Counted from the first letter of the stretch, positions 5,610 through 17,221 are shown. The stretch is DNA of 23,971 bases from Thainema sp. (GCA_052168235.1 JBQLZK010000082.1:1-23971), one strand, 5' to 3'. Translations and numbers: made by a program. The notes: generated by a model not told the origin, from the sequence alone.

Positions 5610-6404
5610 TTACATGTTGAGATCGGGCAAATTGACTTCAATCTCGGCAGTGTAGCAGGTCCAATCGGAGCGCGACAGGGTTTTTCCACAGACTACAGGC
5701 TCACGATTTCCAGGGAAATTACTGTGCGAAGCGTCCCGGTAGGCCACATAGTTAAATACCAACAGTGGCAATCCTAGAGGCACTGCCAGATGTTCGCTCA
5801 GTTCGTAGGTGGCGGGAATGCTCTCCAGGCTGACCTTGGCGGCATGTAAATGAACGCCATTGCGCACCAATGTGCTGTAGGTAAATCCCTGCGTCAGGGG
5901 TTCAGCTAGCACTTGCCCAATAGTTACGGGATAATAGGCAACATCCAGAGCGATCGGAGTATCGTTTGCGTAGTAAATTTTTTCTTGCCAGTAAACTTGA
6001 GCATTCTTACTGGTCAGCGCTAGCTTGTGCTTCACCTCTGCTGGGGCCTGAATTAGCTGAAACTGCAGCGACTGCACCCGACTGGTATAGCCTTGTTCTT
6101 CAAGTGCTGCATCGAAGTGCATCAGCGGGTTAGCCATCGAGAAGCTAATTTTGTGCGGCTCGGTCACAAAAATCCCCTTGCCCTGCTGGGTTGTGACCAG
6201 TCCTTGCTGAATTAGATTGCCAATCGCCTTGCGAATTGTCGTGCGACTTACCCCAAACATGACGCCCAGATCAAATTCACTGGGCAGCCGCTCCCCTGGT
6301 TCGAAGGCTCCGGTCTCGATCTTGTCTTTAAGTTGTTCTGAAATGACAACATGCAAGGGTTGTCGTTCGGTATCTTGTCCGCTGGGAACCATGGAAAATG
6401 TCAT
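5610..6404 (-). CDS. GntR-family transcriptional regulator, HutC subfamily (wHTH + UTRA)
   Basis: GERLPSEFDLGVMFGVSRTTIRKAIGNLIQQGLVTTQQGKGIFV wHTH followed by a UTRA-like C-terminal domain; start may be ATG 6392. Confidence 0.9.
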   Translation of the reverse strand: MTFSMVPSGQDTERQPLHVVISEQLKDKIETGAFEPGERLPSEFDLGVMFGVSRTTIRKAIGNLIQQGLVTTQQGKGIFVTEPHKISFSMANPLMHFDAALEEQGYTSRVQSLQFQLIQAPAEVKHKLALTSKNAQVYWQEKIYYANDTPIALDVAYYPVTIGQVLAEPLTQGFTYSTLVRNGVHLHAAKVSLESIPATYELSEHLAVPLGLPLLVFNYVAYRDASHSNFPGNREPVVCGKTLSRSDWTCYTAEIEVNLPDLNM

Positions 6405-6502
6405 TGTCCGATGATGACCTCTGGCATTCTACAGGAGAGTTGAAGCAGCAGACGTGAGTTCATACTTTATCAATATGCGAATGTATGTTTGTGACGTTTC
6501 TG

Positions 6503-7660
6503 TTAAGCGGTCACCATCTGAAACCGCGCCAGCTTAAACAGGCTGGTATCGTGGGGAGTGCTACCTTCTACAGCTAAATCGGCCAGTATTTTGCCCATTA
6601 GCGTAGTGAACTTAAAGCCGTGTCCCGAAAAGCCCGCCCCGATGACCACCTGGGGGTAGTCGGGGTGTTGGTCGACCACAAAATCTTTGTCAGGGGTGAG
6701 GGTGTAGAGGCAGCGACGGGTCGAAATCAGCGGTCCCGCCGCATCGGGTATAAACTGGCTGGCCCAGCTGCGAATGCGCTCTGTCCACTCTGGGCTGGGG
6801 GTGTAATCGACTTCGCTGGGTTGCTCAACGGTATCCCAGCCGTAGAAGGTGGTGATCTTTAGCCCAATGCTGGGATCCTCGTGGGGAATGCCGTAGGGCA
6901 TCTCGCCATAATCGCCGTTCATATGGGCAAAGAAAACGGGAAACTTACCTGGCTCGAAGTCAGCCGCATTTTTAGGCTGGTAGAACCCCAGTTGGCAGGG
7001 CATGATCTTCAGAGGCAAATCAATGCCTTGGGTCGCTAACACCTCCTTGGCCCAACTGCCCACAGTAATGACGATGCGATCGCATCGGTAAGTCTCGTTT
7101 GCTGTCTGCACTTCGACGCCGTTCTCGGAAGGGGTAATCTGCAAAACCGGCGACTGATCCGTCACGGTCGCTCCTCGTTCTTGGGCCAGACGAGTGTGGG
7201 CCAGCACGCAGCAAGAGGTCTTTAGCAGGCCCGAGTCAGCGTGAAACAAGCCTTCCATGCCGTCTTCTAGAGCAAATTGGGGATAGCGCTTAGCAATCTC
7301 CGCTTGGCTGAGGTGCTCGTAATCCAGCCGTGATTCGTCCAAACTCGTTTTCATGCGCTGAAAGGTCGACATTTCTGGAAAACCAAAATCCAGCCCGCCA
7401 GTTTTGACATACAGCTGTTCACCGGCTTCCTCCTGCAGGGCAAACCAGAGGGGATAGGCATCGCGCATCAGGTTGACGTAAATGGGATTATCGTAGGTGT
7501 ACCGAATCACCCGCGAAAAGCCGTAGGAACTGCCATTTTGGTGGTTCAGCTCAAACTGCTCAAGTAACAGCACCTTTTGCCCGGCTTTGGCCAAGTAATA
7601 GGCCGCGGCACTACCAACTCCACCGGCCCCAATCACGATCGCATCAAATTGCTGTGCCAT
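6503..7660 (-). CDS. solA: Monomeric sarcosine oxidase / N-methyltryptophan oxidase family flavoenzyme (385 aa)
   Basis: GAGGVG FAD motif, GSSYGFSRVIR, CLYTLTPDKDF (covalent-FAD Cys position), GFSGHGFKF. Start moved from 7735 to ATG 7660 (MAQQFDAIVIG), which has AGGAG upstream. Confidence 0.85.
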   Translation of the reverse strand: MAQQFDAIVIGAGGVGSAAAYYLAKAGQKVLLLEQFELNHQNGSSYGFSRVIRYTYDNPIYVNLMRDAYPLWFALQEEAGEQLYVKTGGLDFGFPEMSTFQRMKTSLDESRLDYEHLSQAEIAKRYPQFALEDGMEGLFHADSGLLKTSCCVLAHTRLAQERGATVTDQSPVLQITPSENGVEVQTANETYRCDRIVITVGSWAKEVLATQGIDLPLKIMPCQLGFYQPKNAADFEPGKFPVFFAHMNGDYGEMPYGIPHEDPSIGLKITTFYGWDTVEQPSEVDYTPSPEWTERIRSWASQFIPDAAGPLISTRRCLYTLTPDKDFVVDQHPDYPQVVIGAGFSGHGFKFTTLMGKILADLAVEGSTPHDTSLFKLARFQMVTA

Positions 7661-7845
7661 GTCAAACCACGCTCCTAGAAGAAAGTTGAAGAGATAGAGT
7701 TTGCTAAAGCTGGCTGTTAGGCTGAAAAAGCGCATCCAATGCTAAGGGGAGAGTTTCCCCTAATGACTAACTAAAAACTTGACTACTCGCAAACGAATAG
7801 TGGTGGCGGCCCAGAGACGTTATCAAACCTGTAGAGTACGCCTCT

Positions 7846-14994: not shown

Positions 14995-15023
14995 TCGGAC
15001 TGATGATTCTATAGGTTGACGCC

Positions 15024-15806
15024 ATGCAATTTTCGATTGAAGTGACGCCGAAAGCCGATGTCTCAGAACTGTCCCAAGCTTTGCGAGAGGTGTCGATCAC
15101 GTTTCTACCTGGTGCAGACTATCGGGATGTAGTGGCCCAGGCCGTGCGGTTGCGGACAATCGGCTATGATCCGATTCCCCATGTACCTGCTCGTAGTCTG
15201 CGCGATCGCAACCACCTCTACGACTATCTCACTGCTCTTCGTGAGCAGGCCCAAATACGACAGGTGCTGATTATCGGTGGCAGCCTCGATCGCCCCGTTG
15301 GCCCCTTCAGCTCCACACTGGATCTGCTGGAAACAGGTCTGTTCGACGGCCTGCGCGTCGGTGTCGCTGGACATCCTGAAGGCATGCCGATCCTGAATGA
15401 GCGGGAGGCTGACCGAATCCTCGCGCTCAAAAACCAATACGCCCGCGATACCAACACCGATATGTTTGTGATCACCCAGTGGTCGCTGGATGTGATGACG
15501 GTGCGTGCCTGGCTCGATCGCATTCAGCCTTTCAACCACCTTCCCATCTACCTCGGCATCCCTGGCCCCACCACCCCGGCGACTTTACTAAAGTTTGCCA
15601 AAATCTGTGGGGTCAAAACTAGCTTGCTAGGATTACGGCATCAGTCTGCTCGACTGGGTCAACTGCTGACGGTGCAGACCCCAGATTATCTGGTCGATGG
15701 GCTGAGCGATCGCATCCATCACTTCCATATCTATACCTTTGGCGGCTTGGTGCGATCGCGCGACTGGTTAACGACTCGGCTCTCGCAGGAGGCGATGCCG
15801 GCATGA
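15024..15806 (+). CDS. metF: Short methylenetetrahydrofolate reductase family protein
   Basis: [38 protein letters not shown]. Confidence 0.75.
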
Positions 15807-17221
15807 CTCAGGTTCATCTTCCATCTCCCACCGTTTCTACCGGCATGCCGACCAGCGTTTTCGACATCTTCAAAGTCGGCATTGGCCCTTCCAGTTCCCA
15901 TACCGTCGGCCCGATGAAAGCGGCGCTGCGATTTGCCCAGGAGCTGGCGGCAGACGGACTGCTAGGAGAGGTACAACGAATTCAGATTGACCTGTATGGT
16001 TCGCTGGGGGCCACGGGTCGGGGTCACGGCAGCGATCGCGCCGTTTTGTTGGGGCTCGAAGGCGAGTCGCCCAATACCATCAACCCCGATTTGATTGAAG
16101 AGCACCTACAGCGCATTCGCAAAAACCAATCAGTCTGCGTTTTGCAGCAGCTAGTGCTGGCGTTTAACGAAAAAAACGATCTCAAGTTTCACTGGCAGCC
16201 ACTGCCCTTTCATCCCAACGGCATGGTCTTTACTGCCTTTGATGTGACGGGTGCAGTGCTGCGCGATCGCACCTATTACTCAGTCGGTGGCGGCTTTGTG
16301 ATTGACGAGCAAGCGGCCTTGGTCGATCGCCTGCCGCTCCACCATTCATCGGTGCCCTACACCTTTACCACCGCAGCCCAGCTATTGAACCACTGCCAGC
16401 AGACAGGGCTGTCGATCAGCGAGGTGATGCTGGCCAATGAGTTAACCTGGCGCTCTGAGGCCGAGATCCGCGCCGACCTGCTCCAGATCTGGCAGGTGAT
16501 GCAGGCCTGCGTATTGCGGGGATGCCAAACCGATGGTATTCTTCCTGGCGGTCTGCGGGTGAAGCGCCGTGCCCCCGCTCTCTATCGCCACCTCAAGCAG
16601 CGATCGGAATATACCCTAGCCGACCCCCTCAGCATCATGGACTGGGTCAACCTCTACGCCATGGCGGTGAACGAAGAAAATGCTGACGGGGGCCGAGTAG
16701 TCACTGCTCCCACTAACGGGGCTGCAGGTATCATTCCCGCCGTGCTGCACTACTACACCCGCTTTTGTCATGGGGCCTGCGAAGCGGGTGTGGTCAACTT
16801 TTTGCTAGTCGCGGGGGCAATCGCCATTCTCTACAAAGAAAATGCTTCAATCTCTGGGGCTGATGTCGGCTGTCAGGGGGAAGTCGGCGTCGCCTGCTCG
16901 ATGGCGGCGGGGGCATTGACCGAGGTGCTTGGTGGCACCCCCGCCCAAGTCGAAAATGCCGCTGAAATCGGCATGGAGCACAATCTGGGTCTCACCTGTG
17001 ACCCGGTGGGCGGCTTAGTGCAGGTACCCTGCATTGAGCGCAATGCCATGGGCGCGATCAAAGCCATCAACGCTACCCGCATTGCCCTTCGAGAAGATGG
17101 GCAGCACTGCGTCTCCCTCGACGAAGTAATTAAAACCATGGTCGAGACTGGACGCGACATGCACGAAAAGTACAAAGAAACCTCTCGTGGAGGGCTGGCG
17201 GTCAACGTGATTGAATGTTGA
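15803..17221 (+). CDS. sdaA: L-serine ammonia-lyase, single-chain Fe-S type
   Basis: [82 protein letters not shown] overlap with metF. Confidence 0.95.

Follow-up and report, generated by a model that had tools for sequence, protein, structure and literature searches.

Does a cyanobacterium that encounters glycine betaine only store it, or can it also break it down? In PMC7824335, PMC12478193 and PMC7574528, cyanobacteria are portrayed as making and importing betaine, and its breakdown is ascribed to heterotrophs, from which ammonium reaches phototrophs second-hand. A contig of Thainema sp. (23,971 nucleotides; the window, that is, the whole stretch analysed) bears on this question, since a sequence-only reading of it had proposed a self-contained cluster for betaine uptake and stepwise demethylation. 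Our analysis indicates that some filamentous cyanobacteria possess a conserved, self-regulated cluster that very probably takes glycine betaine down to glycine. We give a probability of roughly 0.6 to the fuller reading, a substrate-induced glycine betaine demethylation island that is probably driven by host ferredoxin.

Organization, host and conservation of the cluster

Positions 5610..17221 contain eight ORFs in two divergent arms, as originally described, all intact and open, with a spacer of 568 bp between the arms. Gene families were assigned via Pfam, NCBIfam and PDB matches.

5610..6404, minus strand: gntR, GntR regulator of the HutC subfamily (GntR and UTRA domains; PF00392 and PF07702)
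6503..7660 (ORF to 7735), minus strand: solA-like, monomeric sarcosine oxidase-like flavoenzyme (SolA/MSOX family), ~385 aa (PDB matches)
7970..9658, minus strand: bcct, BCCT transporter (PF02028; TIGR00842 over cut-off)
9833..9848: predicted operator copy on the side facing the bcct promoter, AGTTGTCACTACAAGT (motif scan)
10057..10072: predicted operator, perfect palindrome ACTTGTAATTACAAGT (top-scoring site in the genome)
10091..10106: predicted operator, third copy, ACTTGTAATTACAGGC (motif scan)
10227..11462, plus strand: Rieske non-haem iron oxygenase (PF00355 and PF00848) belonging to an uncharacterised clade; motif ENFSESYHLSWVHP
11542..13965, plus strand: dmgo, dimethylglycine oxidase-type flavoenzyme with folate-binding GcvT domain (PDB 1pj5 match)
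14026..14994, plus strand: EamA/DMT transporter, accessory (PF00892)
15024..15806, plus strand: MetF-like, type 4-like methylene-THF reductase (MetF2), accessory (PDB 7xg9)
15803..17221, plus strand: SdaA, single-chain Fe-S L-serine ammonia-lyase, accessory, overlapping metF by 4 bp (TIGR00720)

The solA-like ORF is open over 6503-7735; because homologues begin at its residue 26, the start is likely the ATG at 7660. An MscS-type channel gene comes after sdaA here and in three other loci (L011, L012 and L025).

The search for synteny across Cyanobacteria proposed in the earlier reading found a core of GntR, SolA-like, BCCT, Rieske and DMGO genes in 51 distinct loci, including that of Nodosilinea nodulosa PCC 7104, where all eight genes are present. 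Among informative loci, gntR occurs in 41 of 44, the SolA-like gene in 46 of 46 and the DMGO gene in 44 of 44; the accessory genes are less constant, with EamA in 14 of 42, MetF-like in 21 of 41 and sdaA in 26 of 37 (absent from 11). When 400 genomes of the class were sampled evenly, the Rieske orthologue turned up in 26, every one of which also has DMGO. The cluster is found in 39 of 122 genomes of the host family and in six families of the class, with DMGO identities of 74-91%. The cluster loci have no conserved aldehyde dehydrogenase gene, as would be expected if the methyl group leaves as formaldehyde.

The cyanobacterial origin of the contig was borne out. HIP1 (GCGATCGC) occurs at 29 sites in the window (0.54 expected) and, in agreement with the sequence-only reading, lies within most of the cluster genes (six of eight, gntR and dmgo having none). 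The genome contains four psbA matches over cut-off and shows 0.5% contamination, and the named carriers of the Rieske orthologue are all cyanobacteria, save one record titled 'uncultured bacterium'. It is very improbable that the cluster is a contaminant, or a decayed recent arrival without function in a cyanobacterium. The contig is merely 24 kb long, the GC3 of the cluster (0.55-0.67) is above the genome median (0.55) and a transposase interrupts the Rieske gene of one carrier (L088). Against these points, HIP1 density in the cluster (0.95 per kb) is close to that of the genome (1.19 per kb), the operator is conserved, the cluster recurs in the family and class as counted above, contigs from independent metagenomes match the span almost identically in DNA (three of four runs covered 30 of 30 bins), and its synteny largely refutes this explanation.

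In one respect the original description failed: the cluster is not self-contained, as no reductase, glyA or formaldehyde dehydrogenase lies within it. The absence of glyA had been recognized, and a housekeeping copy is present on another contig (C3). Glycine cleavage, FolD/PurU and a glutathione-dependent formaldehyde dehydrogenase are also encoded elsewhere in the genome.

The GntR protein (HutC type) is proposed to repress both arms through the predicted operators. Their motif has three matches in the window versus 0.05 expected, these three copies head the genome-wide ranking of sites, and the palindrome is conserved across loci. The GT-AATT-AC sequence is a HutC-type GT-N4-AC palindrome whose centre departs from the subfamily consensus MTAK. 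The regulator would hold both arms off through the three palindromes until an inducer binds. With GTA-N8-TAC taken by us as the NtcA box consensus, no such box was found in the upstream spacers of the window, and none was enriched across loci (10 of 59, versus a shuffled mean of 6.05 and maximum of 11).

Predicted steps from uptake to serine deamination

The BCCT protein carries the Na+-coupled GxGxG motif and a full aromatic box, with Gly143, Tyr193 and the TM8 Trp triad, and would import betaine with Na+. This assignment was sustained as to family and betaine-type residues. It is weakened by a score below the NF047988 cut-off (579 versus 650 bits) and by PDB matches in which TmaT (546 bits) is ahead of BetT (416) and BetP (328). 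TmaT, a trimethylamine carrier and the nearest solved relative, does not bind betaine; the BetP/OpuD-type features present here (GxGxG, Trp box, Tyr154, no Asp108) are also common to TmaT, and both carriers share GxGxG, the Met105 equivalent and six aromatic-box residues with the protein studied. These common residues leave its predicted substrate 'betaine-like'. The markers of choline (Phe154, Asp108) and DMSP (Phe329) specificity (PMC11708041) are both absent from the BCCT protein. The accessory EamA transporter possibly exports an intermediate.

The Rieske protein has the ligand residues of group V (quaternary amine) oxygenases: Rieske CxH..CxxH ligands (C109, H111, C129, H132), a 2-His-1-Asp iron site (H235, H240, D361) and a bridging Glu232. 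The folds nearest to its model (pLDDT 92) are CntA (Z 37.7) and Stc2 (Z 37.0), though terephthalate dioxygenase scores almost as high (Z 36.0). It had been described as GbcA-type, a label that we reject. Its NF058607 score is 141 bits (cut-off 670), versus 528 for the genetically supported Paracoccus GbcA; it is 26% identical to GbcA/BmoA (group Vb), forms its own clade in the tree, has neither the Cys pair nor a reductase partner, and has Phe230 at the CntA-203 position, where Paracoccus GbcA has Asn (ENNRECYH). Asn at this position marks the demethylating group Vb (PMC7948474), whereas Tyr/Phe marks group Va; Phe was read in 46 of 47 orthologous loci and Leu in the other (L019). The published rule places the enzyme, by its sequence, in the company of CntA, choline monooxygenase and OxyBAC, none of them a betaine demethylase; with these it shares the aromatic residue, the bridging glutamate and the top fold match. 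Identity as a CntA carnitine monooxygenase was also rejected: the proteins are 24-26% identical and in separate clades, Ser/Leu replace the Cys206/Cys209 pair, other pocket residues differ and CntB is missing. 'Choline monooxygenase' is the JGI automatic label of many orthologues.

The nearest annotated non-cyanobacterial relatives (41-43%) directly precede an aldehyde dehydrogenase gene, which points to larger aldehyde products in the sister group. Among 30 non-orthologous sister-clade metagenome loci, five adjoin DMG, sarcosine or folate genes (sarcosine oxidase and folD in L115, DMGO and soxB in L114, a type 4-like MetF in L120, and DMG dehydrogenase-like genes in L128 and L134); the other 25 have no such neighbour with respect to the reference set used.

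No GbcB/BmoB flavin reductase is conserved in the loci examined. Queries with GbcB, YeaX and PDR gave weak partial matches or none in the genome, and its 11 Fer2 matches all lie in frames (≤244 aa, or 972 aa) that do not have the size of a reductase fusion. Because no reductase travels with the Rieske gene, a host 2Fe-2S ferredoxin is the most likely source of both electrons, a donor that would couple this step to photosynthesis. The enzyme is the putative first N-demethylase, a role assigned from pathway position only; with O2 it would hydroxylate one N-methyl group, giving dimethylglycine and formaldehyde.

Similarity to enzymes of solved structure gives good support to the steps from dimethylglycine through sarcosine to glycine. 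The DMGO label proved sound: the protein scores 809 bits to DMGO 1pj5 versus 418 to mitochondrial DMG dehydrogenase, has the architecture DAO, FAO_M, GCV_T and GCV_T_C, and keeps H48, H227, Y258 and D543, aligned to H48, H225, Y259 and D552 of 1pj5, namely the flavinylated His48, the His225-Tyr259 pair and Asp552. Strong homology indicates that it would convert dimethylglycine to sarcosine, methylene-THF and H2O2. The monomeric sarcosine oxidase label was upheld in part. Among PDB entries, monomeric sarcosine oxidases score best (238 bits), followed by N-methyltryptophan oxidase (180) and NikD (130), and the residues aligned to R49, R52, K265, C315, Y317 and K348 are kept, presumably including the flavinylated Cys, the carboxylate-binding Arg/Lys and the O2-activating Lys. 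The protein passes the SolA model NF008425 (360 bits, cut-off 257) but not TIGR01377 (330 versus 480), and Phe occupies both the M245 and H269 pocket positions. Its moderate homology suggests conversion of sarcosine to glycine, formaldehyde and H2O2. Both flavoenzymes show full-length homology and common catalytic positions with their counterparts, Arthrobacter globiformis DMGO (1pj5) and Bacillus monomeric sarcosine oxidase (1zov, 1el5), whereas here the two are joined in one regulon with a Rieske enzyme.

Housekeeping GlyA would then combine glycine and methylene-THF into serine, and SdaA (TIGR00720, 725 bits, cut-off 345), where present, would yield pyruvate and ammonium. The MetF-like ORF, without a Pfam match, was identified via PDB 7xg9 (E 1.7e-37). 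Against the type 4 MTHFR reference residues (Leu48-Pro49, Arg78, Phe215/Cys219, Phe269 and Pro268) it keeps L28-P29, R57, F191, C195 and F239, and has Thr238 for Pro268; Thr is also found in 11 of 12 other loci read, and Pro only in L076. S6MTHFR (Sphingobium SYK-6) and MetF2 (Ruegeria) share L48-P49, R78, F215, C219 and F269 with it. The sequence-only reading had this enzyme processing methylene-THF, but its type 4 relatives run in reverse, oxidizing methyl-THF and not consuming methylene-THF; the direction is uncertain here, and the enzyme may balance the two. Type 4 MTHFRs usually serve THF-dependent methyltransferases, whereas none lies beside this gene; no THF-dependent demethylase or methyltransferase occurs in the cluster loci, and the genome has no MttB-family gene. 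In Ruegeria pomeroyi, betaine induces both MetF2 and SdaA (PMC12478193).

Alternative substrates and purposes

Betaine is the probable substrate of the cluster. That the entry substrate is another N-methylated osmolyte (choline as in plant choline monooxygenase, proline betaine or another amino-acid betaine), with the flavoenzymes completing demethylation, appears rather unlikely. The aromatic residue at CntA-203 without a Cys pair, the JGI name, the tie between CntA and Stc2 folds, the aldehyde dehydrogenase paired with Rieske genes in sister clusters, and a Paracoccus enzyme that uses both betaine and stachydrine (bioRxiv 10.1101/2023.12.12.567942) would all agree with it. However, choline entry needs two more enzymes, betaine aldehyde dehydrogenase and one that demethylates betaine, and the genome has no BetB (best 326 bits versus 669) or GbcA over cut-off and no MttB; choline markers are missing from BCCT, and SdaA and MetF indicate glycine and serine, not proline. 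Moreover, other cyanobacteria carry SolA, Rieske and aldehyde dehydrogenase genes together in a distinct cluster, so that an aldehyde-forming role seems to be a paralogue's. A trimethylamine-centred route is less probable still. In it, BCCT would carry trimethylamine, or the Rieske enzyme would split betaine into trimethylamine and glyoxylate in the manner of CntA. The flavoenzymes would have methylated amines as substrates, or else dimethylglycine and sarcosine taken up separately. The wide lead of TmaT over BetP and the top CntA fold agree with this, as does a genomic match above cut-off to type III glutamate-ammonia ligase (TIGR03105, a family that we take to include the methylamine-using GmaS). 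Yet a Haloferax BCCT beside DMGO also best matches TmaT (481 bits), so this match is not diagnostic, and the TmaT binding residues are common to quaternary-amine carriers. No N-methylglutamate genes adjoin the ligase, a SoxB query had no match in the genome, comparison of the FMO-like protein with bacterial TMA monooxygenases gave no match at E 1e-30, and cleavage to trimethylamine would strand the always-linked DMGO without a substrate.

Betaine demethylation might also serve a purpose other than nitrogen supply, either betaine disposal after salt down-shock or provision of C1 units, glycine or dark energy. This possibility, which overlaps our preferred reading and is not additive to it, falls clearly short of even odds. 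The NtcA results, the loci without sdaA, the channel gene after sdaA, and a genome with glucosylglycerol synthesis and a ProV/ProX-type importer are compatible with it. On the other hand, glycine also yields ammonium through glycine cleavage, present in the genome, so loss of SdaA leaves the nitrogen benefit in place, and a substrate-induced repressor suits either purpose. Of the earlier claim that betaine is catabolized to pyruvate and ammonium, the route fits the evidence, while the SdaA basis for ammonium holds for 26 of the 37 loci and is accompanied by no NtcA box. Betaine may be used as a nitrogen source.

Comparison with known betaine pathways

Our literature searches turned up no description of such a betaine breakdown cluster in cyanobacteria, in line with the earlier reading. 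The pathway overall would be a variant of the known betaine demethylation route; the conserved palindromic operator is new. In Pseudomonas, Chromohalobacter and Paracoccus, GbcAB/BmoAB is followed by DMG dehydrogenase and sarcosine oxidase. The Rieske first step (proposed here), the intermediates, the folate C1 link and serine deamination are the same, but that pathway uses DgcAB and SoxBDAG in place of DMGO and a monomeric oxidase, has a GbcB reductase, is governed at the Paracoccus locus by a GlxA/AraC-type regulator instead of GntR/HutC, and does not have an oxygenic phototroph as host.

If betaine is the substrate, about one-third of one filamentous family would draw directly on a pool of organic nitrogen that is a major one in mats and saline soils, photosynthetic microbes feeding on a salt-protectant formerly thought only stored. 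The cluster offers as candidates an uncharacterised Rieske clade, ferredoxin-driven demethylation, a type 4 MetF in an unusual setting and a new GntR operator. More tentatively, at somewhat less than even odds, the Rieske enzyme would be the first of an unrecognised class of betaine N-demethylases, breaking the group Va/Vb rule and running on photosynthetically reduced ferredoxin; mat, biofilm and soil cyanobacteria would thus be light-driven users of betaine, the osmolyte of their neighbours, demethylating it and gaining ammonium, C1 units and pyruvate directly. Similar aromatic-203 enzymes would then be the first step in haloarchaea and Bacillales.

Rieske, SolA, BCCT and DMGO genes lie together on Haloferax volcanii pHV3, adjoining glyA, and on a Priestia megaterium plasmid, adjoining formaldehyde-fixing hxlAB, glycine cleavage and sdaA, with a flavoprotein reductase nearby. 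Identities to the proteins studied here are 46-47% for DMGO, 38-50% for BCCT and 35-37% for SolA, whereas the Rieske proteins (26-29%) belong to unrelated lineages in other clades and the regulators are different. A cyanobacterial locus (L075) combines another unrelated Rieske lineage with SolA, DMGO and a choline dehydrogenase-like GMC protein, with no BCCT in the stretch covered. The Haloferax, Priestia and L075 Rieske proteins all have an aromatic residue at the diagnostic CntA-203 site. In haloarchaea, DMGO beside BCCT has been noted and betaine use raised as a possibility (PMC3102087).

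Arrangement and distribution of the cluster

All eight open reading frames between positions 5610 and 17221 are present and open, and they form two divergent arms separated by a 568-bp spacer, just as the sequence-only reading had described them:

Minus arm (- strand): bcct (carrier), solA-like (monomeric sarcosine oxidase-like flavoenzyme), gntR (regulator)
Plus arm (+ strand): Rieske oxygenase, DMG oxidase (DMGO, dimethylglycine oxidase-type flavoenzyme), EamA, MetF-like, sdaA

The window is contig C82 in full, from a 7.5-Mb genome that carries psbA genes and shows 0.5% contamination. 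A scan of the window sequence found HIP1 inside six of the eight genes, in agreement with its reported occurrence in most of them. The window contains 29 HIP1 sites versus 0.54 expected, and their density is 0.95 per kb in the cluster versus 1.19 genome-wide. An artefactual cluster is hardly conceivable. The GC3 of its genes (0.55-0.67 versus a genome median of 0.55) is a slight sign of foreign origin.

The synteny search across cyanobacteria proposed earlier was carried out, and the core is kept over 51 distinct loci (61 before duplicates were merged). Thirty loci came from a pattern scan of species genomes, covering Nodosilinea (including N. nodulosa PCC 7104), Oculatella, Leptolyngbya, Halomicronema, Phormidesmis and cyanobacterial bins. 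Among informative loci, that is, those with the gene found or a flank of adequate length, solA was present in 46/46, dmgo in 44/44, bcct in 44/49, gntR in 41/44, sdaA in 26/37, metF in 21/41 and eamA in 14/42. An even sample of 400 genomes from the phylum gave one orthologue and two distant matches (32-33%) and was too dilute, so class and family samples were taken. The Rieske orthologue was detected in 26 genomes of an even class sample of 400, all 26 of which, from six families, also encode DMGO; a second genome of the same genus in this sample had neither. A DMGO orthologue was found in 39 of 122 further genomes of the same family, and Pleurocapsa, Myxosarcina and Hyella also appear by name among the Rieske and DMGO orthologues. 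Near-identical DNA spans the cluster in contigs from aquatic, biofilm and soil metagenomes.

Locus L011, from a different family, has the eight genes plus mscS in identical order at 75-91% identity, which suggests transfer of the cluster between cyanobacteria. In the window, an MscS channel gene with a cNMP-binding domain (17375-18823) lies 3' of sdaA; mscS also follows sdaA in L011, L012 and L025 (77-79%) and possibly moved together with the cluster. In another locus (L088:10463-13010), a DDE transposase splits the Rieske gene while DMGO, SolA, BCCT and GntR are intact, a natural loss of the first step.

Transporter and downstream enzymes

Among solved structures, the BCCT protein scored highest against TmaT (546 bits), followed by BetT (416) and BetP (328); TmaT is likewise the best match of the Haloferax BCCT. 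TmaT is presented in passages of PMC11708041 and PMC7997507 as a trimethylamine carrier that does not bind betaine. With its Na+-type Gly, Tyr154 and Trp329, the cluster protein is without the choline and DMSP markers listed in a section of PMC11708041. Betaine is a compatible substrate, though not a proven one.

The assigned conversion of dimethylglycine to sarcosine is well supported at the sequence level. DMGO (807 aa) aligns over its full length with dimethylglycine oxidase 1pj5; the score, 809 bits, is double that of mitochondrial DMG dehydrogenase. The protein retains the residues aligned to the functional positions H48, H225, Y259 and D552. The oxidation of sarcosine to glycine is moderately supported: the SolA-like protein is nearest to monomeric sarcosine oxidases (238 bits versus 180 for N-methyltryptophan oxidase) and retains the flavinylated Cys together with the carboxylate- and O2-handling residues, but it falls below the TIGR01377 cut-off and has Phe in place of both M245 and H269.

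The MetF-like protein matches 7xg9, in numbering consistent with S6MTHFR, and retains L48-P49, R78, F215, C219 and F269, with Thr replacing P268. Diagnostic residues of the type 4 MTHFR family, which oxidises methyl-THF, are set out in part of PMC11868366. The MTHFR family assignment was upheld, but its processing of methylene-THF is put in doubt by the type 4-like character of the protein. It may feed methyl-THF back into the methylene pool that GlyA draws on, a role considered because no MttB methyltransferase was found in the genome, or it may run the forward reaction. In Ruegeria, betaine raises MetF2 and SdaA (excerpted in PMC12478193). The host genome has glyA, folD, purU, glycine cleavage, a housekeeping metF, glutathione-dependent formaldehyde dehydrogenase and glucosylglycerol synthesis; it encodes no BetB over the cut-off, and no betaine synthesis genes (GSMT/SDMT) adjoin proV or proX.

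The Rieske oxygenase and its probable substrate

The Rieske protein had been read as GbcA-type, an assignment that we abandon: the GbcA model gives it 141 bits, versus 528 for Paracoccus GbcA, which is genetically supported (partial text of bioRxiv 10.1101/2023.12.12.567942). Within group V, CntA, choline monooxygenase and OxyBAC carry an aromatic residue at position 203 (CntA numbering), where GbcA, BmoA and Stc2, the demethylases, carry Asn (relevant section of PMC7948474). The cluster enzyme has Phe230 and the bridging Glu232, without a Cys pair. It falls within an 89-row clade (SH-aLRT 100) that is separate from both GbcA and CntA, in a quick, midpoint-rooted tree supported by SH-aLRT only. 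As rows were picked by similarity to the query and Stc2, BmoA, OxyBAC and plant CMO are absent from it, we draw no conclusion on a donor or on the sequence of events; its row 'cyano_L046_second' is the orthologue in locus L046, not that locus's second Rieske. An alignment-based model (pLDDT 92) ties between CntA (Z 37.7) and Stc2 (Z 37.0). No match to the GbcA profile exceeded the cut-off in 61 class genomes, and an ESM Atlas search returned only Rieske clusters without names.

From this family, motif and fold evidence, the role of the enzyme must come from gene context, which favours the formation of dimethylglycine, because DMGO always accompanies it, no aldehyde dehydrogenase is conserved beside it in the loci examined and the DMGO/SolA pairing recurs. 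In Haloferax volcanii, Priestia megaterium and cyanobacterial locus L075, Rieske proteins of other lineages, aromatic at 203, lie alongside DMGO and SolA; haloarchaeal DMGO-BCCT linkage is noted, the cluster itself without a test, in a portion of PMC3102087. The nearest annotated non-cyanobacterial relatives (41-43%) are encoded directly 5' of an aldehyde dehydrogenase, and among 30 sister-clade metagenome loci, judged against the reference set of genes, 5 have DMG, sarcosine or folate neighbours and 25 have none.

No reductase is conserved in the cluster loci; in the genome, GbcB/YeaX/PDR queries gave weak partial matches at most, and no Fer2 domain occurs in a reductase-sized frame. Host ferredoxin would be the simplest electron donor. 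Ferredoxin supplies the electrons of plant choline monooxygenase.

We give a probability of about 0.62 to a pathway in which betaine would be imported by BCCT, N-demethylated to dimethylglycine by the Rieske oxygenase, and converted to sarcosine by DMG oxidase and to glycine by sarcosine oxidase, glycine passing onward through GlyA and SdaA or through glycine cleavage. Nitrogen, C1 or osmolyte disposal are candidate purposes. An entry substrate other than betaine is less likely. A system centred on trimethylamine is much less probable still: a type III glutamate-ammonia ligase is encoded in this genome (TIGR03105, over cut-off; L197:8661-9968, contig C2), but it stands alone without N-methylglutamate pathway neighbours, and the FMO does not resemble TMA monooxygenases.

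Betaine demethylation of this type is known in heterotrophs (in part of PMC9321204), while cyanobacterial betaine is treated in the pertinent pages of PMC7824335 as synthesis and uptake only. The full-text literature, most subscription journals lying outside its scope, yielded no report of betaine catabolism or such a cluster in cyanobacteria, nor did passages of PMC13381886 and PMC7240134. New are the host group, the Rieske clade without reductase, the displaced type 4-like MetF and the operator.

Putative operator and related loci

A putative operator was absent from the sequence-only reading. In the spacer, ACTTGTAATTACAAGT at 10057 is a perfect palindrome; together with its two variants, at 9833 and 10091, it makes three window matches versus 0.05 expected. 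At least one site occurs in 59/59 upstream segments and at least two in 52/59 (shuffled mean 0.35), counts that measure conservation rather than provide an independent test, as the motif itself comes from the same segments, about ten of them duplicates. Ten genomic sites exceed 14 bits, the three in the spacer ranking highest. HutC-subfamily operators have GT-N4-AC spacing (in a part of PMC4494728); the palindrome shares it, and the cluster GntR carries a UTRA domain. Control looks substrate-specific, since no NtcA-type box was seen in the upstream spacers. A sigma-70 scan was uninformative (4 sites versus 8.1 in shuffles).

A second, independent cyanobacterial cluster (L075:6591-14177) encodes a choline dehydrogenase-like GMC enzyme, an NMT1-type binding protein, DMGO (57%), SolA (38%) and a Rieske protein, aromatic at 203, that clusters in the tree with that of Priestia. 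A paralogous cluster (L187:5096-11047, L188:4921-12466) comprises a SolA-like oxidase, a Rieske protein (ENFMEYYHLPWVHP), an aldehyde dehydrogenase and a PucR regulator, with a DddP-like lyase and ProVWX additionally in L188; L189 has its SolA and Rieske only, and at L046:934-5491 it adjoins the main cluster, no second SolA being seen. A cyanobacterial genome with the main cluster also carries a GbcA/Stc2-like Rieske (ENNRECYH, 400 bits), a SolA-like oxidase and a ProVWX-type importer (L190:2995-13064). In the source genome, a second Rieske oxygenase and an NMT1-type ABC importer (L195:3463-11197, contig C34) neighbour a CobW/HypB/UreG protein and a free ferredoxin. Proteobacterial sister Rieske genes (L055, L056, L057, L104) accompany an aldehyde dehydrogenase and flavoenzymes, with BCCT carriers in three of the four and DUF3726, on which the literature search found nothing relevant, near two.

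Elsewhere in the window, dispersed repeats at 7846-7945 and 17265-17365 have 145 and 103 genome matches of at least 70 bases, and the latter, 3' of sdaA, folds as a 20-pair hairpin. A SARP/BTAD-AAA regulator (1517-4680) appears split into two overlapping frames (1517-3421 and 3418-4680), perhaps by a frameshift, and is followed by a SCO4226-like gene. A DszC/SfnB-like monooxygenase of acyl-CoA dehydrogenase fold (58-1257) suggests organosulfur scavenging.
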